From positions 1 to 54,280 of IMG/VR virus record IMGVR_UViG_3300037493_002486: DNA of 54,280 bases. One strand, given 5' to 3'. This stretch comes from a virus. Taxonomy: Duplodnaviria > Caudoviricetes. Numbering within the stretch: the stretch's first letter is position 1; each line of letters begins with the position of its first letter. The notes under the pieces were generated by a model. It saw only the letters and a program-made list of their open reading frames with translations, searched no databases and had not been told where the DNA came from. Positions 21,167 through 37,556 of the stretch are shown piece after piece. The translations under genes and the position numbers were made by a program.

Positions 21167-21262
21167 GCTACGCACTTTCAGCACTAATAGGCATTATTAT
21201 CGGGATTTCAGGCGTAGCAACGAAGCCTGACCCTCAACAAACAGATAAGAAAGAAGAGATAC

Positions 21263-22141: not shown

Positions 22142-22143
22142 TT

Positions 22144-22317
22144 ATGAAATTAAATAAAATGAATCATTTGTATCAATGGATGTGGTGGCAAAAGGGTGAA
22201 TGTGTTGTTGAAGTAATTAGTGTGGGTCACTTCCCTACTACTGCAATGGTAAAACTACCCAATGACAAGTTGACCGAAATAGACATCGTCGAACTTGAAA
22301 TAGCGAACGACCTTTAA
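22144..22317 (+). CDS. Hypothetical protein (57 aa, not in ORF track)
   Basis: MKLNKMNHLYQWMWW...GHFPTTAMVKLP...; fills the operon gap. Confidence 0.55.
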   Translation: MKLNKMNHLYQWMWWQKGECVVEVISVGHFPTTAMVKLPNDKLTEIDIVELEIANDL

Positions 22318-22327
22318 GGAGCATGAC

Positions 22328-22597
22328 ATGAGTGTATTTACAGATATGGAAGAAAGCATTATGGATTGCTGGGGCGTGATAGATGATTTAAAAGCCATGG
22401 CAGAAGGCGGAGAAGAGGCTATCTCTCCTGAATTGTTGCTGGCGTTTGCAGAAGTGTACACGTTTAAATTCTCACGGCTCGCGGACCTACACGAGGACGC
22501 GCTGAAGGAATACTATACGCTTAAAGGGGATAACGAAATATCCTTATCCGTAGATCTCATGGAAGAATTAGATTTACATGGAGACCTACAATGGTAG
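22328..22597 (+). CDS. Acidic hypothetical protein
   Basis: RBS AAGGAG; IMDCWGVIDDL motif. Confidence 0.65.
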   Translation: MSVFTDMEESIMDCWGVIDDLKAMAEGGEEAISPELLLAFAEVYTFKFSRLADLHEDALKEYYTLKGDNEISLSVDLMEELDLHGDLQW

Positions 22598-22758
22598 CGC
22601 GCAACGAAATCACTGGAGACAAAATCCAGTCTAAGGTAAACGAGAACGACAAGTTTGACAAAAACTACGGTGAGATAGACTGGTCCGTTAAACTTGAGGA
22701 CACGCCCGTCAAGCCTGTAGAGGGGGTAAAAAATGAAGATGAATGTAATCCCAATTAA
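22591..22758 (+). CDS. Small conserved phage protein (55 aa, not in ORF track)
   Basis: MVARNEITGDKIQSK...KFDKNYGEIDW; RBS GGAG. Confidence 0.6.
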   Translation: MVARNEITGDKIQSKVNENDKFDKNYGEIDWSVKLEDTPVKPVEGVKNEDECNPN

Positions 22759-23959: not shown

Positions 23960-23996
23960 AGATGGTTCATTTTTAAACTATATAAGGAGATAGATA

Positions 23997-24218
23997 ATGC
24001 CATGTACTCAGGATTGCAACCAAGGACGCACGTGCACGTGTCAGCCGGATAGGAGCGTGGACCGCGCGACAGTCGTGATCGCGACCCTGCTTACCATCTG
24101 CTTTCTTTCCATTGGTCTGGGCTTGTATAAGCTTTTCAGTGGAAACAAAGGCCAAGAGTGCGCTGTCGAAGTGCAATTCAAGGACAGTAGGGCAACTTAT
24201 ATAGGGACAAGTGTATGA
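23997..24218 (+). CDS. Small Cys-rich membrane protein
   Basis: MPCTQDCNQGRTCTC followed by one hydrophobic helix; RBS AAGGAG. Confidence 0.65.
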   Translation: MPCTQDCNQGRTCTCQPDRSVDRATVVIATLLTICFLSIGLGLYKLFSGNKGQECAVEVQFKDSRATYIGTSV

Positions 24219-24334
24219 CCGAAGCAGAAATGGAAGAGCTACGCTTCTTATTGATACTCAGTAAGATGAAAGAGAACGCTGACAAATTGAAAATGGAACT
24301 AACAGATTGTAAAGAAGTCGCGACTATAATGTAA
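24215..24334 (+). CDS. Hypothetical 39-aa protein (not in ORF track)
   Basis: ATGA overlap with the upstream stop; MTEAEMEELRFLLILSKMKE... Confidence 0.45.
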   Translation: MTEAEMEELRFLLILSKMKENADKLKMELTDCKEVATIM

Positions 24335-24700
24335 AGCTGTTCAATAAAGTCGCTTTGGCGGGTAAGTAACTATGCTGGAAACCGTTGGTACAACTAGGTT
24401 TGAGGTACATTGAGTGAGCATTGTTTGCGCATATATCACTTTTTTGCGTTTAATTCGTGCGGATCAAAAAAGTTTGTGTGTAATATAATGTGTAAAATTC
24501 TACACAAAACTAAACTATTAGTTTACATCCAAGCAGAAATGTAAACCATGGGACACAGTTTGAGTGTAAATAATGATTATCCGTATGGTGATATGTATAA
24601 AAAAGAGCAAAATCTATACATATACACACGATGTGTATAAAAAACAGTGAAATATGTACACATGTGCATTTTTTGCACATTACTAACTAGGAGATTTACC

Positions 24701-24772
24701 ATGTGGACCACACCAGCGGCAACAGAAATGCGCTTCGGCTTTGAAGTGACAATGTACGTAATGAACAAGTAG
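24701..24772 (+). CDS. pqqA: Pyrroloquinoline quinone precursor peptide PqqA (23 aa, not in ORF track)
   Basis: MWTTPAATEMRFGFEVTMYVMNK contains the W..P...R.GFEVTMY pattern (E-x3-Y). RBS AGGAG at 24689-24693 and a terminator directly after. Confidence 0.93.
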   Translation: MWTTPAATEMRFGFEVTMYVMNK

Positions 24773-24788
24773 TAACATATTTGTTACT

Positions 24789-24811
24789 AAGCCACCTTCG
24801 GGTGGCTTTTT
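24789..24811 (+). terminator. Rho-independent terminator after pqqA
   Basis: AAGCCACC-TTCG-GGTGGCTT followed by a T tract. Confidence 0.85.
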
Positions 24812-24848
24812 GTTACATGTAACACGTATATACTAAATGTATATACCT

Positions 24849-25277
24849 TTAGCGCTCTAAAAAACTCCCTTCCTTCATCTGACGCTCTTCATGGTGCCAT
24901 ATCCGGTGACAGCTGGCACACAACACCACGCATTTTGACTCAATCTCCGCACGGGCCATCTTGTATGCCCCGTTTTGGGCCAGCTCACTTATCTTTCTAT
25001 TGGCTGGGTCTTTTATAACATGGTGGAAGTCCAACGTGGCCGGATGATTCTGTCCGCACTGCACGCACTCCAAGGTGGACTTATACTCTTCCCACTCGGC
25101 CCGCATACGAATCTTCTGCATCCGTATGCGCTCGATGTGCGCTTCCCTGTTGTTGTGGTAGTGTTTACTTGAATACTGCCGTTGTTTTAATCTTCGTTCT
25201 TCCGGATCTTTAATTGGCATAGTAGAATATACCCTTACAGAAAGACTCTTTATAACATTTATCGTATTAATATGCAA
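24849..25277 (-). CDS. HNH endonuclease
   Basis: CVQCG...LDFHH...CVVLCASCHRIWH; the true start is probably the internal MPIKD. Confidence 0.8.
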   Translation of the reverse strand: MHINTINVIKSLSVRVYSTMPIKDPEERRLKQRQYSSKHYHNNREAHIERIRMQKIRMRAEWEEYKSTLECVQCGQNHPATLDFHHVIKDPANRKISELAQNGAYKMARAEIESKCVVLCASCHRIWHHEERQMKEGSFLER

Positions 25278-25307
25278 AATATGATAAATATCCTACCAAG
25301 GTGAAAA

Positions 25308-25424
25308 ATGACTGAAATCCTCGATTATTACCTATGCTACAAAGAAGCATTCTTACTTGGTGCGTCGTTTGGTATACTTGTTTCATATACTTTTGCTAAA
25401 AAAGCTTTACAAAATCATAGATGA
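25308..25424 (+). CDS. Small membrane protein (38 aa, not in ORF track)
   Basis: MTEILDYYLCYKEAFLLGASFGILVSYTFAKK...; AAGGTG upstream. Confidence 0.45.
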   Translation: MTEILDYYLCYKEAFLLGASFGILVSYTFAKKALQNHR

Positions 25425-25496
25425 TGGTATTCTAGTTGCTCAAACCTATTTTTGGGGCGAATTATGTTTAACAGAAAGTTAGAAAAGGAAAATATC

Positions 25497-25688
25497 ATGT
25501 ATTTAATAGACTTAGCACGGGTGCAATTGCCACCTAATGAACTGCATGCCGCTATCGCACGTCGCGATGACAAAGTTGCACGGCTCAAGGAGCAAATGGG
25601 AAGTAAATACCGTCTTCATCCAGACAACATGGTCCGCTTACCACGGAACATACCTAATTTCTTGTTGAAGGAGAATGATAATGATTGA
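25497..25688 (+). CDS. Hypothetical protein
   Basis: ATG after an AAGGA RBS; MGSKYRLHPDN motif. Confidence 0.6.
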   Translation: MYLIDLARVQLPPNELHAAIARRDDKVARLKEQMGSKYRLHPDNMVRLPRNIPNFLLKENDND

Positions 25689-25872
25689 GTTTTTATTAGT
25701 AGGTGTAGTAGTTAATTTCATATTACTTGCAGGACTTTTTTATGTGTGCTCAAAAGAGTTTGAAAGATTAGAAGCTAGGCATAAGAAGGAAGAGGAAAAC
25801 TTTATTAAATTGATAGTGAGATACTATGAATTATTTCTTGAAATTAAGGAATTAAAAAGGGGTAAAAAATGA
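25681..25872 (+). CDS. Small membrane protein
   Basis: N-terminal transmembrane helix; RBS AAGGAG. Confidence 0.55.
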   Translation: MIEFLLVGVVVNFILLAGLFYVCSKEFERLEARHKKEEENFIKLIVRYYELFLEIKELKRGKK

Positions 25873-26090
25873 AAACAATCGTCCATGTTAACCAACATGT
25901 GATTAAGGAAAATTCAAAGACAGGGGAAAGAAATCCCGTGTTGACTGTTAAAACTTATAAGACCAATACCTACGCACACGAAGTAGAGATAAAAGGCGAC
26001 AGCAAGGTTGTATACAGCCCTGACAAGCCTTTAAGTTGCGGCGCCAAGGTATGGATCGAGACTCAAGGAGAGGTGGTGATAATAAAATGA
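25869..26090 (+). CDS. Conserved phage hypothetical protein
   Basis: IVHVNQHVIK...YSPDKPLSCGAKVWIET motif. Confidence 0.75.
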   Translation: MKTIVHVNQHVIKENSKTGERNPVLTVKTYKTNTYAHEVEIKGDSKVVYSPDKPLSCGAKVWIETQGEVVIIK

Positions 26091-26278
26091 AATACACATA
26101 CGACACAGAGCTATTGTCCGACCTTTATAAAGACGCTTACGGCTTTCGTCCTGACGCAGAATACTTTAAGGCCTGGAAGGAATACCCCGACGACTTTAAA
26201 CAAGTTATATGGAACAGAATACTGGTCGACCTTGCGGCGGCCATAGAAGCAGATAAGGAAGAAGAGCAATATGAGTGA
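26087..26278 (+). CDS. Conserved phage hypothetical protein
   Basis: SDLYKDAYGFRP motif; ATGA overlap with the upstream gene. Confidence 0.7.
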   Translation: MKYTYDTELLSDLYKDAYGFRPDAEYFKAWKEYPDDFKQVIWNRILVDLAAAIEADKEEEQYE

Positions 26279-26606
26279 TTTACACGCTTTTAAAGACACA
26301 AAAGATATGACGGACTGGCTACGTGACAATGCATGGTCAGGATTAAGAGGAGAGGGCACGATTTCTTCTTCCCCAATGTCCGACCCTGTCAATTCTCCAT
26401 CGCACTACACCAGCGGAGGGATCGAAACGATCGACTACATGGAGGCCAAGTCCACCCCTGAGGAATTCAGAGGGCACCTACGCCTATCTGCACTCAAGTA
26501 TCTGTCCCGCGCCGGCCTTAAAGACGACACACTCAAGGATTTAAAGAAAGCGCAGTGGTATATCAATGCCTTGGTGGACTTTATTGAAGACAATCAAGAT
26601 AATTAA
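26271..26606 (+). CDS. DUF3310 (SaV-like) protein
   Basis: DPVNSPSHYTSGGIETIDY...KYLSRAGLK...DLKKAQWY. Confidence 0.85.
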   Translation: MSDLHAFKDTKDMTDWLRDNAWSGLRGEGTISSSPMSDPVNSPSHYTSGGIETIDYMEAKSTPEEFRGHLRLSALKYLSRAGLKDDTLKDLKKAQWYINALVDFIEDNQDN

Positions 26607-26621
26607 TAGTAAACTAGGCCA

Positions 26622-26813
26622 ATGGACGACGAAAAACTAATGCAGATAGTCAGGATTACTGTGGACGGGATAACGTATCCCATGTTCGCACCTGTTATAT
26701 GCAAAGAAGACGAAGAAGTAGGCGAAATTCAAGACCTAGAATTCGGTGAAATCGTCGTAATGAAACACATCGTATCTTGCTTACTTCATGGACTGAATAA
26801 TACGGTGCAATGA
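26622..26813 (+). CDS. Hypothetical protein
   Basis: Last ORF of the accessory operon. Confidence 0.45.
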   Translation: MDDEKLMQIVRITVDGITYPMFAPVICKEDEEVGEIQDLEFGEIVVMKHIVSCLLHGLNNTVQ

Positions 26814-26839
26814 CAAGAAAATAATGGCATTTAGGTAAC

Positions 26840-27270
26840 TTATTACGGCCAAAACAGAGAATAATTTTATAGAGACCCGAAGGTCTCTTTTTTTTATAAG
26901 TAGCGTTTTGAAAAATAGACGTAATGTAACGTAATGGGGTTTTTTAATGGATTTTGGGTGTTTTTGCTTAAAAAATAGGCAATTTTGCTTAAAAAATAGG
27001 CAGGTTTTTAGGTGCGTTTTGAGAGGGAAATAGGCTGAATGGCTTGGTGCGTGGGTCTTGGGGGGTTTTTCATGTTGGTTTGTTAATGGATCATGGCTCA
27101 CGGACCACGGAGCAATTAATGCATTCTATATAAGGTAGCGTTTTGAAAAAAAAAAAATTAAATTGTTTTTTTTAAAATTTGACGTAATAGACGTAATGCC
27201 GTAAGGAACCAGTCGTAGCAACGTTCTTCAGCATTACGTTACATTACGTTGAAATAATAGACGTAATGGA
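26840..27270. repeat. AT-rich non-coding region with ACGTAAT iteron-like repeats; candidate phage replication origin
   Basis: ACGTAAT at about 26919, 26929, 27182, 27191 and 27261, inverted ATTACGT at 27233 and 27243; long A/T runs; duplicated GTAGCGTTTTGAAAAA. Confidence 0.55.
26962..27002 (+). repeat. 21-bp-period tandem duplication TTTTGCTTAAAAAATAGGCA
   Basis: Two exact copies at 26962-26981 and 26983-27002. Confidence 0.9.
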
Positions 27271-27458
27271 ATATCAAAACGTTCTAAAAGTGCGCGCGAG
27301 ACCAAAATTTGGAAAAAATAAATTCTTTTTTTTGGCTAAAAAAGTGTAATGAGAGTGCTTTTTTTGAATAGGTTTGGAAGTAAATACATCTGTTTGGAAG
27401 TCCTTGTTATTTGTGTTACATTATCGGGTAAGATTTGGTATATGAGGAGAAAGTGATA

Positions 27459-27719
27459 ATGCCGTCGAAGGATGAAGAAGTAAAACTAACTGGAATAACA
27501 CCAAGAAAGCATGCTGTTCGCCATAGTGGCAATGGAAGAGCTAAGTATCCGTTTAAGGCAATGATCATAGGTGACTACTTTACTGTGGGCACTGAAGCAG
27601 AAGCCATCAACATACGAGGCGCTTTGAAATCGTTTTACAGAAGGATAGAGAATAGGCGCTTTACTGTTCGCCAGCCTATCGATAATGATTACATATGGAT
27701 TTGCAGGAGGGTAAGCTAA
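27459..27719 (+). CDS. Small putative DNA-binding protein
   Basis: KYPFKAMIIGDYF...FTVR...ICRR motif; RBS GAGGA. Confidence 0.6.
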   Translation: MPSKDEEVKLTGITPRKHAVRHSGNGRAKYPFKAMIIGDYFTVGTEAEAINIRGALKSFYRRIENRRFTVRQPIDNDYIWICRRVS

Positions 27720-28462
27720 TGGCGCTTAAGGATGTTTGGAATGTTCCGCCCATCTTGGGGGATAAATTGCAGAAGAGACTATCTAGTAATGTAGGCTCTT
27801 TGCTTAGTCAGAAGAAGAAGTTAAACGGCCGCGAGTGGAAGTTTGTGCAAGAGCTGGTATCCGGTGACGGCCAAGTCACAATGAAAGAGTGCGCTATCCT
27901 TGCTGGCTTTAGTGAGAAATCAGCAAAGGTTACGGCATGGAAGCTTACCAATCCTGAAATCTGTCCGCATGTAGTTGCCGCGATCCAAGAGTATCGTGCA
28001 GAGTTAAATGCAAAGTATGGCACCAATTACGATAGGCACATGAAGGATTTGCAGTTGATACGGGATAAAGCGCTTGAAGCTGGCGCTTTCGGTGCGGCTG
28101 TATCTGCTGAATATCGTCGAGGTCAGGCACTTGGAACCATCTACATCGAGAGGAAAGAAGTTCGCATAGGCACCATCGATAGTATGAGTAAAGACGAAGT
28201 AATGCGTAAGCTTGAGGAAATCAAAAGAATTTACGGCGCTCCACCTCAAACCATCATTGATATGGAACCTATTGATGTAGAGAGCACCATCGAGGTTGAA
28301 CCGGCATTTGACGCAAACGAGGTAATAGAGAATGGCAATAAAACCAGAGGCGGGGCTATACAAAAGGCTGAAAGAGAATCTACCGGAGGCGCACATCACG
28401 AGAATAGAATCGAGAGTGAACCTAGGGATACCGGACTGTCTGATAGCGCTGAACAAGACTAG
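27719..28462 (+). CDS. terS: Probable terminase small subunit
   Basis: N-terminal HTH with AILAGFSEKSAKVTAWKL and AAVSAEYRRGQALG; RBS AGGAGG. Confidence 0.7.
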   Translation: MALKDVWNVPPILGDKLQKRLSSNVGSLLSQKKKLNGREWKFVQELVSGDGQVTMKECAILAGFSEKSAKVTAWKLTNPEICPHVVAAIQEYRAELNAKYGTNYDRHMKDLQLIRDKALEAGAFGAAVSAEYRRGQALGTIYIERKEVRIGTIDSMSKDEVMRKLEEIKRIYGAPPQTIIDMEPIDVESTIEVEPAFDANEVIENGNKTRGGAIQKAERESTGGAHHENRIESEPRDTGLSDSAEQD

Positions 28463-28748
28463 GTTTGTAATGGTGGAGCTGAAAGTGGTAAAGCGCGGTA
28501 AGAAGGTCGCGCTTAGTCCACACCAAGTAGCCTTCCATCTCAAGCATGCCAGCTTAGGCTGTCCCACATATATCTTGGTGCAGTATCATCCGGCCGGCAC
28601 AACATCTGCATTAAAGGCCGAGCTATTGCTATATGACGGATCGCAAGCAGAGGATTTGCTGTTGCGTGGCGTGGAATGTATCCCAGCTGAAAAATGGCCG
28701 CTATCACATGTGCATTGGCATATGTTTAGGCATGCTTTAACCGAGTAA
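28332..28748 (+). CDS. VRR-NUC-like nuclease / Holliday junction resolvase
   Basis: E...RIE...GIPD...VELK...LSPHQVAF. Confidence 0.75.
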   Translation: MAIKPEAGLYKRLKENLPEAHITRIESRVNLGIPDCLIALNKTRFVMVELKVVKRGKKVALSPHQVAFHLKHASLGCPTYILVQYHPAGTTSALKAELLLYDGSQAEDLLLRGVECIPAEKWPLSHVHWHMFRHALTE

Positions 28749-28751
28749 AAG

Positions 28752-28776
28752 AAAAGGGGCTTAGCGCCCCTTTTTT
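28752..28776. terminator. Bidirectional Rho-independent terminator
   Basis: AAAAGGGGC-TTAGC-GCCCCTTTTTT between convergent gene blocks. Confidence 0.8.
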
Positions 28777-28933
28777 ATTGCCCTCCAAATATATTTGCAA
28801 ATAGCAACATCGATAATAGTCTAAATATAGTGCTGAGTTTGAACGGTGCCTCCGGCGCCGCTGGTTTAGTCTCTATCGTTGCTCGCTCGCGTCGCAATCG
28901 TCTGCGTCGATCGTGTGGGTTTTCTCGTGGCAT
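28775..28933 (-). CDS. Small hypothetical protein (52 aa, not in ORF track)
   Basis: MPRENPHDRRRR...LLSMLLFANIFGGQ; ends at the terminator. Confidence 0.45.
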   Translation of the reverse strand: MPRENPHDRRRRLRRERATIETKPAAPEAPFKLSTIFRLLSMLLFANIFGGQ

Positions 28934-28942
28934 AGCAAGTCA

Positions 28943-29155
28943 TCACCCCTTGTATACTCTAATTGCTTCATCTTCTATGTCATCAATGAATGAATCGCCT
29001 AAATCGCTTTCACGGACTGAATCGCCATCTTCATCTAGAATGCGCTTGATTGGCACTTCATACAATGTAGGGCTGTCGCCCGTGCCGTATCCGTCACGGT
29101 CTTCAGTCACATGCGCCGTTATCAAAAACCCTTGGTGCTCGAATTCAAAGCTCAT
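28943..29155 (-). CDS. Early hypothetical protein
   Basis: DGYGTGDSPT motif; RBS AAGG. Confidence 0.65.
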   Translation of the reverse strand: MSFEFEHQGFLITAHVTEDRDGYGTGDSPTLYEVPIKRILDEDGDSVRESDLGDSFIDDIEDEAIRVYKG

Positions 29156-29161
29156 GGATAT

Positions 29162-29437
29162 CTACCTTTCAAATGCATTTAAATAATCGTTAACGGCCTC
29201 GCTGGCGGTCTCGCCCTCATAGCTGGTCGCTATAATCTCGGCGCAGTCTTCTTCTGATAATTCATACCTTAGCCGCTTGGCATAGTCTTTTAAATCCGTA
29301 TGGTCAAAACTAATCTCTTCTACATAAGAGGCATTCGCTGTCTGATAGCGATACTCTTTAGCACAAGCCAAGGCGTCTTTTTCGTTATCAAAGGTGCCTA
29401 AGCATGTGCCGTTATGGTTGTATGCATTAAATGTCAT
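29162..29437 (-). CDS. Early hypothetical protein
   Basis: RBS GGAGGTG; acidic protein. Confidence 0.65.
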   Translation of the reverse strand: MTFNAYNHNGTCLGTFDNEKDALACAKEYRYQTANASYVEEISFDHTDLKDYAKRLRYELSEEDCAEIIATSYEGETASEAVNDYLNAFER

Positions 29438-29588
29438 CTTGCACCTCCATTAGTTTTTTTACATCAGTATCAATCAAGCATGCCACATCGTCCCTAAGGT
29501 CGCCTTCTGAAAATTCATTGATTAATACGCCTGTTTCCTCGTCGTATACACCTATCGTCACTTTGTAATACCATTTTCTAGTTTTCAT
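29427..29588 (-). CDS. Early hypothetical protein (53 aa, not in ORF track)
   Basis: MKTRKWYYKVTIG...; RBS AGGGG. Confidence 0.5.
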   Translation of the reverse strand: MKTRKWYYKVTIGVYDEETGVLINEFSEGDLRDDVACLIDTDVKKLMEVQDDI

Positions 29589-29597
29589 ATTAAGCCC

Positions 29598-30059
29598 CTA
29601 TACATCGTATTGTTGATAAATAATTAATATACCGGTATTGGTTGAATGATTAAACGGTAGCCAGTTATAGTGCCGGCAAAAATACCCTCCGGCCTCTTGA
29701 TGAGTCTCTGCATAGTAATTAGTAGCAAAAAAATCCTCTACTCTGTCGGCCGTTATGTCCGCCTCAAAATCTTCAAGCTTTAAGTATAGGTCTTGCCCAT
29801 CTACGCCTAAGGGAATAGTCCCTATCCGCGTCACTTTTATTGTGTCCAAGCTTGGCACCTCCACGATCCTAAAATCTTCTCTGTCTGTGTAGTCTTTTAA
29901 ATTGCCGGCGTCTACTTCATGCTCCGTCTCTTTTAAAAACTCGTCCAGCGCGGCCTGTGCACTTTCTATGCTGTCGAACCTAGTAGGTTCGCCATCATCG
30001 CTCCATGTATTTTTCCATCCGCCACATAGGCAATACTCTTGCACTTCATACTTGGCCAT
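29598..30059 (-). CDS. Early hypothetical protein
   Basis: RBS GGGAGGGTG; GGWKNTW...DFRIVEV. Confidence 0.65.
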   Translation of the reverse strand: MAKYEVQEYCLCGGWKNTWSDDGEPTRFDSIESAQAALDEFLKETEHEVDAGNLKDYTDREDFRIVEVPSLDTIKVTRIGTIPLGVDGQDLYLKLEDFEADITADRVEDFFATNYYAETHQEAGGYFCRHYNWLPFNHSTNTGILIIYQQYDV

Positions 30060-30060
30060 A

Positions 30061-30219
30061 TCACACCCTCCCTTTCACTAGCGCATAAATCAATGCCAGT
30101 CTATCTGTCGTCATATTAAATAAAGCCGCCCCGAAATACTCTTCTATATCGCTAACAGTCCGAGCGGGTAATGCCTCCCTTATTGTTAGCTCCATCGCGT
30201 CTAGCATGGTCTCGGTCAT
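30061..30219 (-). CDS. Early hypothetical protein
   Basis: Probable start MTETML after GGGGGTG. Confidence 0.5.
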   Translation of the reverse strand: MTETMLDAMELTIREALPARTVSDIEEYFGAALFNMTTDRLALIYALVKGRV

Positions 30220-30299
30220 ATCACACCCCCAATTAAAAGTAGTGCTGTCGTTAAAGTAATTGCCCATAGGCATATCGTGAATGTCTTATCGGTCATGGT

Positions 30300-30452
30300 C
30301 TATTCTTCCTCAATTAGTTTAATCATCTGCGCCAATGCGTCTGTATTAGAATGCCAGTCGGTCATCTCTATTAGCATAGGCTCTTTCTCGGCTATGTGAT
30401 TAATCAAGTCACATAGGTATTGCATTCTTGCTATCCTATATTGCTTGGTCAT
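30300..30452 (-). CDS. Early hypothetical protein (50 aa, not in ORF track)
   Basis: ATGA overlap with the upstream stop; RBS GGAGG. Confidence 0.55.
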   Translation of the reverse strand: MTKQYRIARMQYLCDLINHIAEKEPMLIEMTDWHSNTDALAQMIKLIEEE

Positions 30453-30685
30453 AGCTCGTCCTCCCCTTCTTTGTCATCTTCCGGCTCCGGAAATAGATAG
30501 TCTGCCGTGAATTGGATAACATCCCAGTTTATGCCGTTGTTAGCGTCAAAATCATCGGCCAAAACTTCCAGCACTCTTAGCGCCTCGGATTCAGTTAAAT
30601 CCGGCCTTATGTTTAATACATCATCAATGTGCCAGTCGTCGGCTAAATACCAAATACCTGTCTCTGTCTGCTTCATATGTGCCAT
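30449..30685 (-). CDS. Early hypothetical protein
   Basis: WHIDDV...RPDLT...FDANNGINWD motif. Confidence 0.7.
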   Translation of the reverse strand: MAHMKQTETGIWYLADDWHIDDVLNIRPDLTESEALRVLEVLADDFDANNGINWDVIQFTADYLFPEPEDDKEGEDEL

Positions 30686-30688
30686 GGT

Positions 30689-30880
30689 CTAATCCTCTTC
30701 TATAATGCCGCTATCTAAGCATGCGGCTAATACGGTCTGCGCTAAGCGCCTATCTGCCATTATGGCCATCGCTATTGTTTCCTGTAGCTCTTGCCATTCG
30801 TCACGGTCTATGTTGCCTTGCCATTCATAATTATCAACAAGGCGGCTTATTGCCCATTCAATACTTGAGTGTAGATTCAT
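30689..30880 (-). CDS. Early hypothetical protein
   Basis: Translationally coupled operon; RBS GGGAG. Confidence 0.55.
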   Translation of the reverse strand: MNLHSSIEWAISRLVDNYEWQGNIDRDEWQELQETIAMAIMADRRLAQTVLAACLDSGIIEED

Positions 30881-31047
30881 AGTGTCGGCTCCCTATCTAG
30901 TGCGTCAATCGTATCAATAATGCAACTATCGGCCACGCTCATCAATCGCTCTATAGTGCCGTCGTTGATATCTTGCGCATAGTGATATACATTCGACAAT
31001 AATCGTTGCGCTTGGTCTAAGTCGCTAAGTATTTGGTCTCTTGTCAT
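30877..31047 (-). CDS. Early hypothetical protein (56 aa, not in ORF track)
   Basis: MTRDQILSDLDQAQRLLSNVY...MSVADSCI; RBS AAGGGA. Confidence 0.55.
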   Translation of the reverse strand: MTRDQILSDLDQAQRLLSNVYHYAQDINDGTIERLMSVADSCIIDTIDALDREPTL

Positions 31048-31050
31048 GGT

Positions 31051-31239
31051 CTAGTCCCTTTCGTCAAAGTCACAATGTTTTAGCTCGGCCAATAGCTCGG
31101 CCTCGTCCATGTTTTTGAATCCCTTGAAGCCATACATTAACAAGTCCCATATTAGGCCATCATTAAAGCTAGTATCGGTTTGGCATAGCTCTAGGTTATA
31201 TTCCACAAGCTTGCTAATTAGTTCGTCTCTATCAGTCAT
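31051..31239 (-). CDS. Early hypothetical protein
   Basis: GFKGFKNMDEAEL motif. Confidence 0.6.
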   Translation of the reverse strand: MTDRDELISKLVEYNLELCQTDTSFNDGLIWDLLMYGFKGFKNMDEAELLAELKHCDFDERD

Positions 31240-31255
31240 TTTGCTTTCTCGCTTT

Positions 31256-31876
31256 CTAGTGTTTAAGGTAGGTTACATTGCTTACGGTTTTATCCCAGCA
31301 CGCGCGGCATGTTCCGCACTTGCCATTATTAGCTGGCGCTTTACATTCGACGCCATCTATCTTTCCGGCCTTGGTTATAACGGTGCTCGTTGTCGGCCAC
31401 GCTCCAGCTGGTGCCATGTCCAGCATTGGCATGCTTAGGCGCACGGTTAAATTATCCGGCATGGCTCGCTGTCTATTAACCTTGGCCAGTATGCCTTTCT
31501 CTTTCGTAGGTAGCCAAAAAGTCACCTCCGGCATGGCCTCGGCAATGTCCATGATTGCCATTAAATGCGCCTCGCTTTGAATATCGCCGCTGTCGTGCCA
31601 GCGAAAATAGCCGGTAGTATCATTGCTTTTAATGGCCGCTATCATACCGGCCTTCCACGAAGGCAAGTCACTAAGGGATTGCAAATTATGCTCCCTGTGG
31701 CTTATTACATTTTTAAATCGATAATTGCCTTTCATAGCATAGCAGTCATAGCATACGCTCCCTTTAATCTCGGCCAGCTGGCGGCCGGTCTTGCACGCCG
31801 TCGCCGGCGTGCTAAAGGTATGGCATGGCATTTTCTTAGGCTCGCTAAGCTTAGGCATGAATTGAATGGTCTGCAT
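31256..31876 (-). CDS. Gp88-like Cys-rich (probable Fe-S/metal-binding) protein
   Basis: KMP...C..G...VCYDCYA...YFRWHDSGD...WLPT...CGTCRACW. Confidence 0.75.
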   Translation of the reverse strand: MQTIQFMPKLSEPKKMPCHTFSTPATACKTGRQLAEIKGSVCYDCYAMKGNYRFKNVISHREHNLQSLSDLPSWKAGMIAAIKSNDTTGYFRWHDSGDIQSEAHLMAIMDIAEAMPEVTFWLPTKEKGILAKVNRQRAMPDNLTVRLSMPMLDMAPAGAWPTTSTVITKAGKIDGVECKAPANNGKCGTCRACWDKTVSNVTYLKH

Positions 31877-32417
31877 GGCGCGCGCCCTTTCTATTATATT
31901 CGTAATACCTTGCTATTGTTGCCTCGGCCTCTGCCTCGGCCTCGGCATGGTCAAAAAAGCCGCCGGCTCCGTCAATCCATTCGCCTGTTTCGTCCATGAT
32001 ATCAAAACGATATATGTTGCCAGTTAAATACCGGTCAAAATAATCAATCTCACGCGCTAGCCTTGCCTCTATGCCCGCTCGGCGCTTTGCTGTAATGCGC
32101 GTATAACCTAGCCAGTCGCGCACGCGCTCCGGCGTGGTGTATATAATTCCAAGCTGGCCGCTGTCCCAGCGGCAATTAAATGGCGTTGTGCTAATAGTAA
32201 TGCCGCCATGGTCATACATATAAACCGGTAAAATTATGGCGCGTGGTGCTGTCTTTTTTAAATCGGCAAGCCATTCCTCCGGCGCTTGTTTTGGTTGCTG
32301 GTCGCCAAGTGCATAGCGCCTATGCCATGTCACTATCACGCCTAAATTGTCACAATCGCGCGGATGATTTAATTCGCACTCGTCACGCTCTACAATAAAT
32401 GAATATGCCATGATCAT
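31851..32417 (-). CDS. Early conserved hypothetical protein
   Basis: LPVYMYDHGGITIST...WDSGQLG motif; start overlaps the upstream stop. Confidence 0.7.
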   Translation of the reverse strand: MIMAYSFIVERDECELNHPRDCDNLGVIVTWHRRYALGDQQPKQAPEEWLADLKKTAPRAIILPVYMYDHGGITISTTPFNCRWDSGQLGIIYTTPERVRDWLGYTRITAKRRAGIEARLAREIDYFDRYLTGNIYRFDIMDETGEWIDGAGGFFDHAEAEAEAEATIARYYEYNRKGARHADHSIHA

Positions 32418-32800
32418 GCCGCCTTTTTTTGATTGATTGATGATGATATATATACCGGCTCCAAGTCCACGCCATTGAATAAGTCGCGGCACGATACCTT
32501 AAGCCGCTGGCCGGCCGCCTCGACGGTATACCAAAACTCCACGCCAAGCGTATCGCCATTGGTTGCGTCCGCTGGTAGCAGTCTTAAATCGCCGCCGCCG
32601 GCTTTCTTGTTAGCCGCTATAAATGAAGCCGCGAATTCGTCGGCCTCGAATCTTGGTAATTCCCATGCATAGGCTAAGGCGTTGGCAATAAACCGGTGCG
32701 CGCCGTATTCCGTCCAATGGGTAGGATAATTATCCCAATGCTTAAAAACTGTATAGGCGCCGTCGGCGTCTTTAAAAGTGTAAAGTCCACGAGTGCTCAT
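32414..32800 (-). CDS. Early conserved hypothetical protein
   Basis: MSTRG...FKHWDNYP...AWELPRFEADEFAASF; start reassigned to follow the AGAAAGGG RBS. Confidence 0.7.
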   Translation of the reverse strand: MSTRGLYTFKDADGAYTVFKHWDNYPTHWTEYGAHRFIANALAYAWELPRFEADEFAASFIAANKKAGGGDLRLLPADATNGDTLGVEFWYTVEAAGQRLKVSCRDLFNGVDLEPVYISSSINQKKAA

Positions 32801-32880
32801 AATTAAATCCCTTTCTATCTGTATGATTGAGCGGCCAGCCATCGCCGGCCGCTGGTTGCATTGTAATGCCATGTTTTAAA

Positions 32881-33234
32881 TCATTGCAAGCTTTTTATTA
32901 TGGCCTCGGTCGCGGCTATGGCATTGCTTAGTGCCTCCGCTATATGAACGGCGTGGCCTTTCGTATTGTGGCCATTAGCCAGCGCGGCCGCTATGCTCTC
33001 GGCGGATTCTTGGCTATATCTAGGCGCCTCGGCCAGCTTGCACGGCGACGCCTCCACTAGTCGCCAGCCGCCGGCCTCTCGCACCATCTTAGGTTTGATA
33101 GCTAAGTCGCCCACCATAATCACATGGCCAGTCCCTAAGAGCACGCCATCGAGCGCCGCCAGCGCGCGCTTGTTGGCCTCGTGGGTTTCAAAGAATTGCG
33201 GCGCCGCCTCGCGTAATAAGTCTAAATTGCTCAT
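32881..33234 (-). CDS. Early hypothetical protein
   Basis: RBS GGAGG. Confidence 0.6.
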   Translation of the reverse strand: MSNLDLLREAAPQFFETHEANKRALAALDGVLLGTGHVIMVGDLAIKPKMVREAGGWRLVEASPCKLAEAPRYSQESAESIAAALANGHNTKGHAVHIAEALSNAIAATEAIIKSLQ

Positions 33235-33250
33235 GGTTTGTTGCCTCCGT

Positions 33251-33466
33251 TTAATATAAGTCTAAAGTGTCGTTGTCCGCGCGGTCTTGCCACGCTTGCC
33301 GGTAGGCCTCCCGTCTATTAGGCTCCACCCAAGCGCCATACCATTCAGGATGTGCGGCTTGTAAATCGGCGGCCTCGTTTAATGCCTCCCGCTCTGTTTT
33401 GAATCCCGTTGAATAGGTGCATTCGTCGCCGCATTCATCGGCAATAATAATGTCGTAAGTTTGCAT
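33251..33466 (-). CDS. Early hypothetical protein
   Basis: Follows the repeated leader element; acidic. Confidence 0.6.
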   Translation of the reverse strand: MQTYDIIIADECGDECTYSTGFKTEREALNEAADLQAAHPEWYGAWVEPNRREAYRQAWQDRADNDTLDLY

Positions 33467-33519
33467 GGTTTAATCCCTTTCTATGGTTGCGGCGGCCATC
33501 GCTGGCCGCCATGGTTTAA

Positions 33520-33861
33520 TTAGTCAAAGCGTGAATAATCGCTGGCGTGCGGTATAAACTGAAGCGGCTCGCGCGGGCTGTCGTCCGGCTCCCAGTCGCC
33601 GCCATCGTCCGCCATCGCTGGCGCCTCGGCGGCCTCGGCCTTAGGCCAAATGAACATGGATTTAACTTCAAAATCCAATTGCGCCGCCGCGTCAATGCCG
33701 CGCTTAGCGTTGGCCTCGCGCACTAGCTCGGCGGCCTCGTCGCCGGTGCCCCAATCTAAATTGGTAGGCGTATAGCCGCGCTCGCCGCGTTTGATTATGG
33801 CGATATTAGCGCCAGCTGGCTTGTTTAATAAAACGGTATAACATAGATTGAATGCTTGCAT
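33520..33861 (-). CDS. Early hypothetical protein
   Basis: Start MQAFNL after the AGAAAGGG RBS; IIKRGERGY...SMFIW. Confidence 0.6.
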   Translation of the reverse strand: MQAFNLCYTVLLNKPAGANIAIIKRGERGYTPTNLDWGTGDEAAELVREANAKRGIDAAAQLDFEVKSMFIWPKAEAAEAPAMADDGGDWEPDDSPREPLQFIPHASDYSRFD

Positions 33862-33952
33862 GGTTTTTAATCCCTTTCTGTCTGTATGGTTTACTTGCAT
33901 AAGACCGGCGACGCCGCCGCCGGTTTCGCGCCCTTAGCGCTCATCAGTTATG

Positions 33953-34819
33953 CTATGCCGCCTCGGCCTCGGCGTCCGCCGCCGTGCCCTTGATATAATC
34001 CGCCGCTTTCTGAGCCAGCGCCGCCGCCTTGAATATGGCCGTGTTATCGTCGCGGCATGCCTTGAGCCAGCTCTGAATATATCCGGCATGGCGTAGCTCG
34101 CCGGCGATACCATTATCGGCGCAAAGGTAAGCGGCGCCAATTTCGGCGACTAGCTCTTCAAATGCATAAGCCGGATTCCCAAAACGGCCGCTATGGTCGC
34201 GCGCCAGTCTATGCTTAGCGCCTGTCCAATGCGTGAGCTCATGAAAGGCCGTGGCGTAGTAATGCGCGGCGCTGTCGAATGTGGCTTTATGCGGCAATTG
34301 CACGGCGTCGGTGCTCGGCATGTAGAAGGCCGCGTCGCCGCCATGGCGAATGATTGCGCCGGTTTTAACTATGGCCGCCTCGCATTGCTCGCTGGCGTCG
34401 AATGGCACGGCCACGGGCTCGGCCACCGGTGCGCGCTCGGCGTCGGTCTGCTCGATGTTAAACACGCTGTAAGCTTTTAGCACGGCATAGCCGCTGGATT
34501 TTTCACCGGTCGCCGCGTCCACGGTGCCGGCCACCGGTTTATAAAAGCAAATGGCCGTCCCTTTCTGTCCCTTGAGCACTTGCGCGCCGCGGTCTTGCCA
34601 TTGCTTATATGTTGCCCATTGGCCGGCCGCGTAGCCGTTGCCCATGCTGGCCATGCCTAGAATTAAACGATTCACGCCGCGATAGGCCGCGCCGGTCACG
34701 ATATTATGGTCGGCGCCGCTTGCCGCGTCGGCGTGCCATGGTTTAACCCAAGGCGCCGCGCCCTTTTCGAGCTCGGCGATAATTTGGTCGGTTACTGTCT
34801 GATAAATTGGATTTGTCAT
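33953..34819 (-). CDS. ardC: ArdC-family antirestriction / ssDNA-binding protein with zincin-like domain
   Basis: PWVKPW, YRGVN, WATYKQW, VFNIEQ, AFYMPSTD, HELTHWTG, YAFEELVAEIGA and YIQSWL motifs. Confidence 0.9.
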   Translation of the reverse strand: MTNPIYQTVTDQIIAELEKGAAPWVKPWHADAASGADHNIVTGAAYRGVNRLILGMASMGNGYAAGQWATYKQWQDRGAQVLKGQKGTAICFYKPVAGTVDAATGEKSSGYAVLKAYSVFNIEQTDAERAPVAEPVAVPFDASEQCEAAIVKTGAIIRHGGDAAFYMPSTDAVQLPHKATFDSAAHYYATAFHELTHWTGAKHRLARDHSGRFGNPAYAFEELVAEIGAAYLCADNGIAGELRHAGYIQSWLKACRDDNTAIFKAAALAQKAADYIKGTAADAEAEAA

Positions 34820-34873
34820 TCTGCTAGTCCCTTTCTTTCTGTATGGTTGCGGCGGCCAGCTGGCCGCCGTGGT

Positions 34874-35152
34874 CTATTGGTTGTAGCTGTTCCACCAGCC
34901 GCCCATGAATTCGTTGTCTGAAAAGTCCGCGACTAGTTCGTCGTCGGCTAAGCCAAGCACTACCAGCGCCCAGCCCAGCTTTTCACCGGCGGCGTCGCGG
35001 ATGATTAATTGCGCTTCTTCGACGCTCTCAATGTCCGCAATAATTTGGTTATGGCTGGCGCTCTTTTTACATGCCCATTCTTCGCCGTCATAAACTGAAA
35101 CGGTATGGCCGGCGGCTAATGCATGCTTTACTAAGTGTCTATATGCTTTCAT
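34874..35152 (-). CDS. First early gene, hypothetical protein
   Basis: MKAYRHLVKHALAAGHTVSVYDGEEW; start after the AGAAAGGG RBS. Confidence 0.65.
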   Translation of the reverse strand: MKAYRHLVKHALAAGHTVSVYDGEEWACKKSASHNQIIADIESVEEAQLIIRDAAGEKLGWALVVLGLADDELVADFSDNEFMGGWWNSYNQ

Positions 35153-35214
35153 GGTGTGCCCTTTCTTTCTGTCTGCTGTATGTTGCACGCCGCGCCCGCG
35201 CCGTGCTAGTTCCT

Positions 35215-35242
35215 ATATTAATGATATACGGCACGCCGTCAA
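35215..35242 (-). promoter_or_regulatory. Sigma70-like early promoter (leftward)
   Basis: Minus strand TTGACG-16 bp-TAATAT, upstream of the whole early cluster. Confidence 0.6.
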
Positions 35243-35428
35243 GCGCTTTTTCGCGTGCCGGTTACCTAGTCCGGCCAATGCCGGCCAGCATGCCCGCAAA
35301 GGCGCGCCGGTGCACGCTCACGCCGTCCAATTGCCGGCGGCCGGCTTGGTGCCTTGCCTATATAATAACCAAGCCCACGGCGCGTGAGCCGTGGAGCGTG
35401 TCCCGTGTGCCATGGTGCGATACGCGTG

Positions 35429-35502
35429 GCCGGTGCCCGTGTCCGGAAAAAAGCCTGGTCACATTGCCGGTGTCCGTGTCCGGAAAAAAGCCTGGTCACA
35501 TT
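35429..35502 (+). repeat. 37-bp tandem repeat (2 copies, 1 mismatch)
   Basis: GCCGGTG(C/T)CCGTGTCCGGAAAAAAGCCTGGTCACATT at 35429-35465 and 35466-35502. Confidence 0.9.
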
Positions 35503-35506
35503 GCAT

Positions 35507-35545
35507 GTTAGTAGGCGCTAACCTAAAATGTTAGTGGTCACTAAC
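35507..35545. promoter_or_regulatory. Two degenerate SlmA-binding-site-like palindromes
   Basis: Cores GTAGGCGCTAAC (35511-35522) and GTTAGTGGTCAC (35530-35541), compared with the consensus GTGAGTACTCAC. Confidence 0.4.
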
Positions 35546-35634
35546 CAATGCGCAAAGTCGCATGCCCAGCAAGGCCAGTTTTAAGCGCGCTATAAGGCGC
35601 GTGATTCGTTTTGAACCTACCATACAGGGCTGGT

Positions 35635-35802
35635 TGTGGATATCCTGTGCGTTTCCTGTGGATTCGCTGTGGATAGAATGTGGATAACTTTCCGTGGCAA
35701 ATGATCATAATTGTGGATAACTTGCCTGTGGATAAGCTGTGGATAACCCTGTGCATGAATTGTGGATAACTTTTGGCCTAACAGATCATAGAATGTGGAT
35801 AA
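35635..35802 (-). promoter_or_regulatory. Cluster of co-oriented DnaA boxes
   Basis: Six exact TGTGGATAA (= TTATCCACA on the minus strand) at 35679, 35712, 35727, 35738, 35761 and 35794; near-matches at 35635, 35657, 35668 and 35750. Confidence 0.85.
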
Positions 35803-35891
35803 CTTTTTCACGGTCCGCGGTCCATGGTCGCCGGTCCACGGCCCGCGGCCGGCGCTTAGGGGGGCAGAGTCCCTGAAACCGTTATGGTTAT

Positions 35892-35911
35892 GTAAGTGAG
35901 CACTCACTAAC
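35892..35911. promoter_or_regulatory. SlmA-binding-site-like palindrome
   Basis: GTAAGTGAGCACTCACTAAC; the core GTGAGCACTCAC is an 11/12 match to GTGAGTACTCAC. Confidence 0.6.
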
Positions 35912-36086
35912 CCACCCCAAAAAATTCCCCACCCTCGGCGGCCGTCCGCACACTTTAGCCCGATTTCGCACAGTTTTTGGCACTCCAAACGAAATTGAGG
36001 TATTATGACCCTACAAATAGGCCCCCTTGTTTTAATAAAGCCATTGCTAGAAAAATTTTTACAAAAATTAAAGAGAATGAAAACAT

Positions 36087-37556
36087 ATGCTTAGCGTCTC
36101 TGCAGCTGAACAAGCCTCTATTGAGCAGGCTAGATTAGAGCTTCGTCTTCTCCAGATTGAAGCGCAAGAAAAAGCCCGAAAGGACTTCTTGTCCTTTGCA
36201 AAATACGTATGGCCAGAGGCTATCTTTGGCGCGCACCACACAAAAATGGCAGATGCCTTTAACCGTCTAGCAGATGGGACCTTGAAAAGACTGATCGTTA
36301 ACATGCCTCCGCGGCACACCAAGTCTGAGTTCTCGTCCTATCTGCTACCCGCGTTCATCATGGGCCGTAAGCCAAAAACCAAGATCATTCAAGCGACCCA
36401 CACCGGGGAGCTTGCCGTGCGCTTTGGCCGTAAGGTCCGTAACTTGATGGACACAGAAGAGTACAAACAGGTCTTTGATGACGTAGCCCTTCGAGCAGAC
36501 TCCAAGGCCGCCGGTCGGTGGGACACGGACCATGGTGGGGAATACTTTGCTGTCGGTGTGGGCGGCGCGATGACGGGCCGCGGTGCGGACTTGTTGATCA
36601 TTGATGACCCGCACTCGGAGCAGGACGCTTTGTCAGAGCTCGCCATGGAGAACGCATGGGACTGGTACACCTCCGGCCCTCGTCAACGGCTCCAGCCTGG
36701 TGGTGCTATTGTCATTGTGATGACACGTTGGAACACCAAGGACTTAACGGCACGTCTTGTCAAGGCACAGGCCAGCCATAAAGCCGACCGCTGGGAGATT
36801 ATTGAATTCCCTGCAGTCTTGCCTAGCGGCAATCCAATGTGGCCGGGGTTCTGGAAGCTTGAAGAGTTGCTCGCGGTCAAGGCCTCTTTGTCACCGCAAA
36901 AGTGGCAGGCCCAGTGGCAACAACAGCCAACCAACGACGAAGGCGCTATTCTGAAAAGGGACTGGTGGCAAGTGTGGCCTAGCGACGAGGCACCGCCTGT
37001 TGAATACATCATCCAGTCGTATGATACGGCTTATTCCAAGAAAGAGACGGCCGACTACTCTGTAATCACGACCTGGGGCGTGTTCTACCCGGACCAAGAC
37101 TCAGGGCCTAATATCATCTTGTTAGACGTCACGCGAGGTAGGTGGGATTTCCCGGAGCTTAAACGTATTGCCAAGGAAAGCTACGACCAGTGGAAGCCTG
37201 ACAATGTGTTGATCGAGGCCAAAGCGACAGGGATCACGCTTCAGCAGGAGCTAAGGAGAATGGGTATTCCTGTGACAATGTACTCACCGGGTGGCCGACG
37301 TAGCGGACAGGACAAGGTATCGCGTGCGCATTCTGTTGCACCCATCTTGGAGGCTGGTATGGTGTGGGCCCCGGACACGGACTGGGCAGAGGAATTAGTG
37401 GAAGAGTGTGCTGCATTCCCGAATGGCGACAACGATGACATGGTCGACAGCACGACGCAGGCATTGAATAGATTTAGGGCAGGTAATTTTATATCTCTTG
37501 GCAGCGATTTATTAGAGGATGAAAAGCAACAAGATGTTGCATTCGAATACTATTAA
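36087..37556 (+). CDS. terL: Terminase large subunit
   Basis: NMPPRHTKS (Walker A), LLIIDDP (Walker B), VMTRW, and nuclease SYDTA and NDDMVD. Confidence 0.93.
   Translation: MLSVSAAEQASIEQARLELRLLQIEAQEKARKDFLSFAKYVWPEAIFGAHHTKMADAFNRLADGTLKRLIVNMPPRHTKSEFSSYLLPAFIMGRKPKTKIIQATHTGELAVRFGRKVRNLMDTEEYKQVFDDVALRADSKAAGRWDTDHGGEYFAVGVGGAMTGRGADLLIIDDPHSEQDALSELAMENAWDWYTSGPRQRLQPGGAIVIVMTRWNTKDLTARLVKAQASHKADRWEIIEFPAVLPSGNPMWPGFWKLEELLAVKASLSPQKWQAQWQQQPTNDEGAILKRDWWQVWPSDEAPPVEYIIQSYDTAYSKKETADYSVITTWGVFYPDQDSGPNIILLDVTRGRWDFPELKRIAKESYDQWKPDNVLIEAKATGITLQQELRRMGIPVTMYSPGGRRSGQDKVSRAHSVAPILEAGMVWAPDTDWAEELVEECAAFPNGDNDDMVDSTTQALNRFRAGNFISLGSDLLEDEKQQDVAFEYY

Follow-up and report, generated by a model that had tools for sequence, protein, structure and literature searches.

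A restriction-site-free island between terS and terL of an uncultured tailed phage as candidate first-exposed DNA

In phages T5 and BF23, restriction enzymes cut only at sites within the first-step-transfer DNA, which is built of two inversely oriented units and has a repeat-rich, non-coding border (as described in passages of PMC10644984). Eight DnaA boxes lie at the T5 stop-signal region, where a role in stopping is put forward as a hypothesis (parts of preprint 10.1101/866236). In Murciavirus phages, a Type I motif restricts only inside the first-injected region, and in the leading regions of plasmids, which enter first, restriction targets are reported to be depleted and anti-defence genes to be common (passages of PMC12455610). 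The rule that early DNA avoids such sites is already known for T5, BF23 and T7-like phages. Here we analyze the whole of IMG/VR record IMGVR_UViG_3300037493_002486, a linear sequence of 54,280 bp from a tailed phage (Caudoviricetes; CheckV completeness 89%), called the window below, and describe an island of about 8 kb from which several restriction-type words have been purged. What is new is its occurrence in a different phage family, its position between the genes of the small and large terminase subunits (terS and terL; the large subunit is TerL) and an array of DnaA boxes at its border, together with a direct, tree-supported view of a lineage that has extended its avoidance list by two words. 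In our judgment, it is reasonably likely that this phage enters the cell stepwise, as T5 or T7 does, and that the island is the DNA exposed first ("pre-early" or leading DNA).

Extent of the purge and tests of chance

Five words, GTAC, ACGT, GCWGC, CCNGG and GGNCC, have 675 sites in the window together and zero copies in the 8,175 bp of 27,279-35,454, and the next-largest gap measures 593 bp. The intervals free of the single words, and the zones that they define, are as follows.

20,326-36,102: GCWGC-free interval
24,754-36,461: GTAC-free interval
26,172-35,454: CCNGG-free interval
27,102-35,812: GGNCC-free interval
27,279-36,205: ACGT-free interval
27,280-35,453: core island, also without GCATC/GATGC, with one CASTG, one CCAGA/TCTGG and six GATC
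20,327-27,279: second tier left of the island, GCWGC absent throughout and GTAC absent from 24,755, other words present

A preliminary description of this DNA, based on a manual scan of 28,800-35,400, had reported none of the five words and three GATC, and computation bears out all of its counts. In that stretch, as against the rest of the window, GTAC occurs 0 versus 147 times, ACGT 0 versus 176, GCWGC 0 versus 133, CCNGG 0 versus 86, GGNCC 0 versus 133 (GGGCC and GGCCC both 0) and GATC 3 (at 28909, 29865 and 32412) versus 83. While the purge in these 6.6 kb stands, the island is wider than described, reaching from 27,279 to 35,454 and including the probable terS. The erased words are presumably targets of the classical Type II enzymes RsaI, MaeII, TseI, ScrFI, Sau96I, SfaNI and TspRI. 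In the second tier, GCWGC is found 0 times against 6.2 expected by the Markov model and 7.8 by codon shuffling, and GTAC 0 times against 8.5. The leftward GCWGC extension is also present in a complete relative, G001 (61,095 bp), which has the same single island.

The island differs from its neighbours in GC content and strand, which could mean that the purge is an artefact arising from base composition, from codon usage or from the amino acids encoded. GC is 0.46 in the window and 0.50-0.58 in the ArdC block; the rise toward 35 kb that had been described is real, from 0.44 at 29-31 kb to 0.58 at 33-35 kb. However, in 1000 synonymous-codon shuffles of 28,775-35,499, the observed counts were reached in none: GTAC 0 against a shuffle mean of 12.2, ACGT 0 against 12.6, GCWGC 0 against 15.8, CCNGG 2 against 13.5, GGNCC 0 against 18.0, GATC 3 against 16.5 and GCATC 0 against 9.0. 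Maximal-order Markov expectations agree with the shuffles, so that codon-preserving and Markov models expect 8-18 copies per word. Moreover, GGCC occurs 71 times in the island, yet GGGCC and GGCCC not once. Outside the island, the purged words are near Markov expectation, as exemplified by GGNCC in the replication and structural zones (28/23.8, 47/41.3 and 38/41.7, observed/expected). Since the rest of the genome is at expectation while the shuffles and the Markov models expect copies in the island, the depletion is neither genome-wide nor compositional; the preliminary description had called it hard to explain by base composition. An artefact of this kind is refuted by these models, and we give it practically no credence.

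The same description had called the region rich in GGCC, CCGG and GCGC. These words are indeed numerous in 28,800-35,400 (GGCC 65, CCGG 49, GCGC 75, and GCCGGC 15 versus 10 in the rest), but the richness is compositional. Their island counts lie at Markov expectation (GGCC 71/75.6, CCGG 57/47.8, GCGC 89/79.1, GCCGGC 16/16.1) and moderately above the codon-shuffle means; they are tolerated there, not enriched.

Unbiased searches led to the same words and to a few more. In a gap scan of 112 palindromic words (16 four-letter, 64 six-letter and 32 five-letter W/S words) and the five-letter N forms, GCWGC, GTAC, ACGT and GGNCC head the ranking of palindromic words by longest gap, and their gaps all end at 35.8-36.5 kb. 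Other long gaps (CGSCG at 12.2-18.9 kb, ATWAT at 2.7-7.4 kb, CGCG at 50.1-54.3 kb) have Markov expectations of only 5-6 and were set aside as unconvincing after multiple testing. Unbiased rankings of depleted words added GCATC/GATGC (0 against about 14-17 expected), CASTG (1 against about 8-11) and CCAGA/TCTGG (1 against about 13), as well as a broader shortage of GCAG- and CAGG-containing words in the island. One of these codon-shuffle rankings treated 1 of the 22 genes out of frame (13 stops) and serves as supporting evidence.

Recent losses and the terS-terL span of other clades

A TerL search of viral contigs returned at least 598 relatives, and 80 loci of them were examined. The nearest named relatives by TerL identity are DSL-LC04 (78%), a lake phage that is itself metagenome-assembled, and the Pelagibacter phages HTVC027P (59%) and HTVC023P (55%). 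No tRNA genes were found in the window.

Eight relatives share 95-98% TerL identity with the window, and five of them span the island at 85-90% nucleotide identity. All five are nearly devoid of GTAC, GCWGC and CCNGG there (0-3 sites each), and the avoidance of ACGT varies between close relatives. The aligned GGNCC sites number 8-14 per relative and fall on 27 different positions, several of which are common to three to five genomes; the window keeps none of them, nor any of the 17 GCATC/GATGC positions of the relatives in the island, while control palindromes of the relatives are kept at about 40-90%. A tree of 4,726 shared island columns places the window as sister to one relative, L002, with support 1.0. 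Given this placement, at least nine GGNCC sites that L002 has in common with other relatives were present in the ancestor and disappeared in the lineage of the window. In the comparison with L002, the late region of the window retains 30 of 35 GGNCC sites and its island 0 of 13. Because island sites of the relatives were lost while late-gene GGNCC was kept, the purge is recent, local and driven by selection. Among the 27 changed GGNCC positions, 11 changes are synonymous, 15 alter an amino acid and 1 is intergenic, and the 15 show that selection prevailed even over the conservation of protein sequence. The missing words had been proposed to list the restriction specificities of the host population, and the lists differ between close relatives as that proposal would lead one to expect.

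As a separate observation, a 5-kb stretch of G001 (L083-L086), about 8.3-13.7 kb TerL-forward, is without GGCC, CGCG, CGNCG, GGNCC, TCGA and GATC, with AT-richness as a possible cause.

On the larger scale, 52 of 81 loci have a probable terS, which shares the strand of TerL in every case and lies upstream of it at a distance of 0.6-8.2 kb, the shortest (about 630 bp) being that of L013, L022 and L024. Given this range in length, the terS-terL interval is a bay for variable cargo, unrelated between clades. The island of the window encodes an anti-restriction protein, ArdC; over the 81 loci, ArdC cargo is limited to the close clade, apart from a match of 28% identity in L022, where it lies on the opposite strand. 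In clades with 75-81% TerL identity, other cargo and no ArdC, different words are missing from the same span. Their word-free zones begin about 100 bp before TerL and extend past the terS start by a few hundred bp, or in two loci by 1.3-2.3 kb, as listed here in bp upstream of TerL.

L035: GGWCC missing, free to 8,511; terS start 8,158
L047: GGWCC missing, free to 8,217; terS start 7,864
L062: GGNCC missing, free to 7,320; terS start 6,461
L034: GGSCC missing, free to 6,802; terS start 6,254
L040: GGSCC missing, free beyond 6,335 (contig end); terS start 6,335
L045: GGSCC missing, free to 6,583; terS start 5,662
L015: CASTG missing, free to 8,829; terS start 7,502
L015: ACSGT missing, free beyond 10,000 (whole stretch examined); terS start 7,502
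L064: CASTG missing, free to 8,492; terS start 6,204
L049: CTSAG missing, free beyond 10,000 (whole stretch examined); terS start 6,789

A depletion test of 48 words in 42 sequences (P < 1e-3) gave one or more depleted words upstream of TerL for 19 sequences and downstream for 3, many of the downstream stretches being shorter. Since the terS inside the island is conserved across the family and clades with different cargo have purged different words from this span, the purge follows position, not gene content.

These comparisons also bear on the idea that the ArdC block is an imported cassette that stems from the leading region of a plasmid or from the phage of a different host and has retained its old imprint and higher GC. 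The GC of 0.50-0.58 in a window of 0.46 would fit, as would the variable cargo of the terS-terL interval, a hotspot 0.6-8.2 kb long. ArdC is a gene of plasmid leading regions, which are depleted in restriction targets (passages of PMC12455610). However, the island contains the vertically inherited terS, point changes removed its GGNCC and GCATC sites after the window lineage had separated from a 90%-identical sister, and in clades with other cargo this span is free of different words. Megablast against 50,697 phage records found no similar DNA, and the bacterial ArdC homologues (70 genome loci in many phyla) reach at most 48% identity over near-full-length matches. The recent point losses, the sister placement and the clade-specific word lists largely refute an import, which we regard as highly improbable.

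Two further observations concern CCWGG. In L010 (2/17 and 0/18, observed/expected, for the two sides) and L012 (2/21 and 0/17), it is avoided on both sides of TerL and thus genome-wide, not locally. In L015, L035, L050, L067 and L071, it is 3-10 times denser upstream of TerL than in late genes, with a peak next to TerL. The odd excess of CCNGG/CCWGG upstream of TerL in other clades was traced mostly to trinucleotide composition; its spacing in multiples of three and its CCTGGT-type contexts suggest Pro-Gly (collagen-like) repeat proteins in the cargo.

Borders, genes and transcription units

The island consists of a short rightward unit with terS and a long leftward operon, which converge on a hairpin, and it is framed by two non-coding borders.

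26,840-27,434: non-coding left border, with a terminator-like hairpin at about 26,865-26,895 and about seven GACGTAAT/ATTACGT repeats
27,435-27,719 (+): basic protein of 94 aa, first gene of the short rightward unit
27,695-28,462 (+): probable small terminase subunit, 255 aa (phrog_51, E 1.3e-9; synteny)
28,752-28,774 (-): terminator-like hairpin at the meeting point of the two convergent units
28,775-35,188 (-): leftward operon of about 19 tightly packed small open reading frames (ORFs)
31,256-31,876 (-): GP88-family protein (PF17338) of unassigned function
33,953-34,819 (-): ArdC-type anti-restriction protein, 288 aa, second ORF of the operon
35,189-36,086: repeat-rich right border, about 0.9 kb
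35,215-35,242 (-): sigma-70-like promoter candidate before the operon, TTGACG-16-TAATAT, a consensus match only
35,429-35,502: two tandem copies of a 37-nt unit, holding the first CCNGG sites after the island
35,636-35,802 (+): DnaA-box array, six perfect TGTGGATAA (35,679-35,802) in one orientation and about four one-off variants
35,806-35,850: 7-nt periodic GGNCC-containing repeats right of the DnaA boxes
36,087-37,556 (+): large terminase subunit and first gene of the late module, from which on all purged words occur again

The borders are sharp. On the left, the GACGTAAT/ATTACGT repeats (window 26,900-27,280), which lie ahead of the terS pair in direct and inverted copies, supply the ACGT sites at 27,182-27,279 and with them the left limit of the ACGT-free interval; they could be terminase or regulator binding sites. 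A further repeat, GCTTAAAAAATAGGCA, occurs twice at 26,967-27,000. On the right, the border is probably non-coding as well, the ORF listed at 35,266-35,499 being probably no gene because of its isoelectric point (pI) of 11.9 and its lack of a ribosome-binding site. A near-identical promoter-like element with a 17-nt spacer stands at the same place in L002. The GGNCC purge has its edge inside this border, since in the left-hand 7-nt array (35,370-35,450) GGNCC is kept in the relatives and mutated in every copy of the window, whereas the window repeats keep it only on the TerL side of the DnaA boxes (the L002 array lies at 9,370-9,400). The 7-nt period of these repeats cannot be coding. The DnaA boxes are partly spaced at 11 nt; no other perfect boxes occur in the window, whose total of 13 matches was reached in 0 of 100 shuffles. 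All eight close relatives have two to three strict boxes at the same place, while the 73 other loci are without such an array, none having more than one box in the 1 kb before TerL. The boxes could instead form an origin of replication or a regulatory site.

Among the 22 island ORFs, 12 have a pI of 4.4 or less, and most carry a GGAG-type ribosome-binding site. ArdC has both of its domains, ArdcN (PF08401, E 4.8e-36) and the MPTase-PolyVal zincin (PF18818, E 1.9e-48) with an HELTH (HExxH) motif, and matches phrog_7245 (E 4e-82). The probable terS has no Pfam match; a homologue is annotated terS in OR003939.1. With ArdC and the acidic ORFs, the content of the island would fit an early host-takeover unit. 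In contigs of the sequencing runs X2 and X3, 34,828 is joined to 35,159, so that the first operon ORF (34,874-35,188) is deleted; the deletion is flanked by 17-nt direct repeat copies at 34,829-34,845 and 35,159-35,175.

The arrangement of transcription units suits an explanation without stepwise entry, in which the whole genome enters and its bulk is shielded by co-injected protein, condensation, or repair and religation, so that only the immediately read units need be site-free. Both island borders are transcription-unit borders (26.85-27.4 kb and 35.2-36.1 kb). Moreover, in all six close genomes the stretch of about 2 kb from the promoter through ArdC is nearly site-free: it lacks GTAC, ACGT, GCWGC and GCATC and has one GATC site, beside the DnaA boxes, the residual sites of these words lying farther away. 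The large virion proteins encoded at 3,580-11,311 could be ejected with the DNA. However, terS, which is not expected to be immediate-early, is purged as strictly as the ArdC operon, and the 86-176 copies per word elsewhere would demand a near-perfect shield, for which no candidate was identified. We regard an operon kept intact under such a shield as unlikely.

The other modules of the window are given here; family scans (PHROG, Pfam) covered 50 of its 82 ORFs.

36,087 onward: late module identified by family scans, with TerL (36,087-37,556, +), portal and major head genes, running past the contig end into the virion genes at 1-11,311
3,580-11,311: several large virion proteins of unassigned function, without PHROG or Pfam match
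11,269-13,418: exonuclease and SNF2 helicase, leftward
up to 20,415: replication module of primase, helicase and DNA polymerase, rightward
up to 26,813: small genes after the DNA polymerase gene, rightward

Three genes among or near these small genes stand out. A radical-SAM and DUF512 protein of 408 aa is encoded at 22,733-23,959 (+), a nucleotide-kinase-like protein at 26,271-26,606, and an HNH endonuclease at 24,849-25,277 (-; phrog_3106, E 6e-21), on the strand opposite to the rightward block around it. The GTAC-free zone starts (24,754) about 100 bp left of the endonuclease gene. The first two proteins, whose roles are unassigned, lend some colour to a regional DNA modification, in which the bulk of the genome would be modified and protected and the island, being unmodifiable, would have to be site-free. 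However, neither a methyltransferase nor a known hypermodification family turned up in the scan of 50 ORFs, and a border that tracks terS and terL across clades would be left unexplained. We know of no example of segment-specific modification, and we give this explanation a very small chance of being right.

Proposed first exposure, possible polarities and comparison with known systems

Since a cut at any place kills the phage genome, a purge confined to one segment implies that enzymes cannot reach the remaining DNA during the exposure of that segment. We therefore favour first exposure of the island during stepwise entry. Under this proposal, the segment that begins shortly before terS and ends where terL starts (27.3-35.5 kb) would be reachable by host enzymes before their shutdown, the host RNA polymerase would transcribe the leftward operon first, and ArdC and about 18 further small, mostly acidic products would neutralise restriction; the remaining 50 kb or so, with 86-176 copies per purged word, would become accessible only afterwards. 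A site in the island would be lethal in a host with the matching enzyme and a site elsewhere harmless, so that each lineage would erase from the segment exactly the words cut by its own host population, which could account for the lineage-specific word lists.

Several points weigh against this proposal. No purge was detectable upstream of TerL in 23 of the 42 relatives tested. The ends of the virion DNA were not located, the record being a linear contig (CheckV 89%), and contig depth in the likely source run X1, a weak measure, is 7-12 in the island and 11.2 downstream, with no doubling. Should packaging proceed from a pac or cos site beside terS toward terL, a common arrangement, the island would be packaged first and injected last. 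Families like the T5 A1, A2 or dmp proteins were not found among the island ORFs scanned or the 50 of 82 ORFs, nor was a phage RNA polymerase among the same 50. Headful packaging with random permutation would leave no fixed first-entering segment (passages of PMC12455610). Finally, the ArdC of R388 has anti-restriction activity against the Type I system HsdRMS, and in the passages of PMC7213743 ArdC is documented only against Type I, whereas the purged words are Type II-like. The preliminary description had taken the island for first-injected DNA exposed before ArdC and similar functions act. Of this, a real, local and selective purge over an ArdC-led operon stands, but ArdC is documented against Type I enzymes and not against these words; for this reason, the other island genes would have to carry most of any protection against Type II-like enzymes.

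If the island is first-exposed, two opposite polarities fit the data, and the hints conflict. In one model, the end of the molecule would be near 35.3-35.9 kb and entry would proceed leftward along the operon; this is favoured by the second tier (GCWGC-free to 20,326, GTAC-free to 24,754) and by the position of the residual ACGT, GATC and GCATC sites of relatives away from TerL. In the other, the end would lie at the repeats upstream of terS, and entry would run rightward and halt at the DnaA-box border; this is favoured by an anatomy like that of T5 and BF23 as given in the passages cited above, with two inversely oriented units, a repeat-rich non-coding border and DnaA boxes.

Evidence on the molecule ends was sought in the contigs. 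At contig level, no ends were found in four sequencing runs; the 37-nt tandem repeat accounts for the shared contig break at 35,466. Five full-length relative contigs have no common terminus, four of them being linear, with unrelated TerL-to-end distances, and one, G001, having an end overlap of only 127 bp, which is probably an assembly product. An excess of contig ends within 1 kb upstream of TerL (16 of the 60 related contigs whose upstream end was reached, 6 expected) is a weak hint and was not used, as a hypervariable junction explains it equally well. The N-terminal domain of TerL is closest to entries 8dgc and 4bij ("terminase large subunit" and "DNA maturase B"), which we take to be T7 gp19, but the similarity (E 4e-5 and 1e-3) is too weak for a packaging mode to be assigned. 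Passages of the literature on the HTVC023P group say nothing on genome ends.

We tentatively extend the proposal of first exposure to the widespread family of HTVC023P-related aquatic phages of about 60 kb, although we doubt that all of it will hold: their terS-terL interval would be a swappable pre-early bay delivered in a separate first step, the DnaA array would halt entry in the clade of the window, and two-step injection would have arisen independently of T5. If there is such a bay, its erased words would be a strain-by-strain record of host restriction systems, with GGNCC and GCATC added after the split from the 90%-identical sister, and its 20 or so small acidic proteins would form a pool of broad anti-Type II inhibitors.

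More generally, local site avoidance could mark first-exposed DNA from sequence alone and predict the polarity of packaging and injection in a large group of uncultured freshwater and marine phages. The erasure of two more words from 8 kb within about 10% divergence suggests that the restriction repertoires of host strains can be read from metagenomes. The roughly 20 uncharacterised, mostly small and acidic island ORFs are candidates for new anti-restriction functions.

Among the described systems, conjugative-plasmid leading regions share with the island an ArdC with both domains. Unlike them, the island is part of double-stranded phage DNA, has no relaxase or oriT context, and encodes an ArdC at most 48% identical to those of bacteria.

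T7-like Autographiviridae, including Murciavirus, resemble the window in that motifs count only in an early-injected, hypervariable region rich in anti-defence genes (passages of PMC12455610), and in that an anti-restriction gene lies near the start of a host-polymerase operon, although the promoter of the window is a candidate by consensus match only. The window differs from them in that no phage RNA polymerase was found among the ORFs scanned, its genes are not all co-directional, it encodes ArdC and not Ocr, and its motifs are Type II-like and not Type I.

Lastly, the first-step DNA of the Tequintavirus phages T5 and BF23 is likewise about 8-10 kb long and 8-14% of the genome, with sites excluded there and tolerated elsewhere; as in T5, the island has two inversely oriented units of small genes and a non-coding, repeat-rich border with a cluster of DnaA boxes (as far as described in the passages cited at the outset). 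Unlike T5, the window has no sign of a long terminal repeat (by contig depth, a weak indication) and no A1, A2 or dmp homologues were found in the scans; its virion and replication genes are unrelated, and the place of its island is between terS and terL. A second, independent example for the disputed stop-signal idea of T5 may be found in the DnaA boxes of the border, and the purge is far broader than in T5, with at least six words fully erased.

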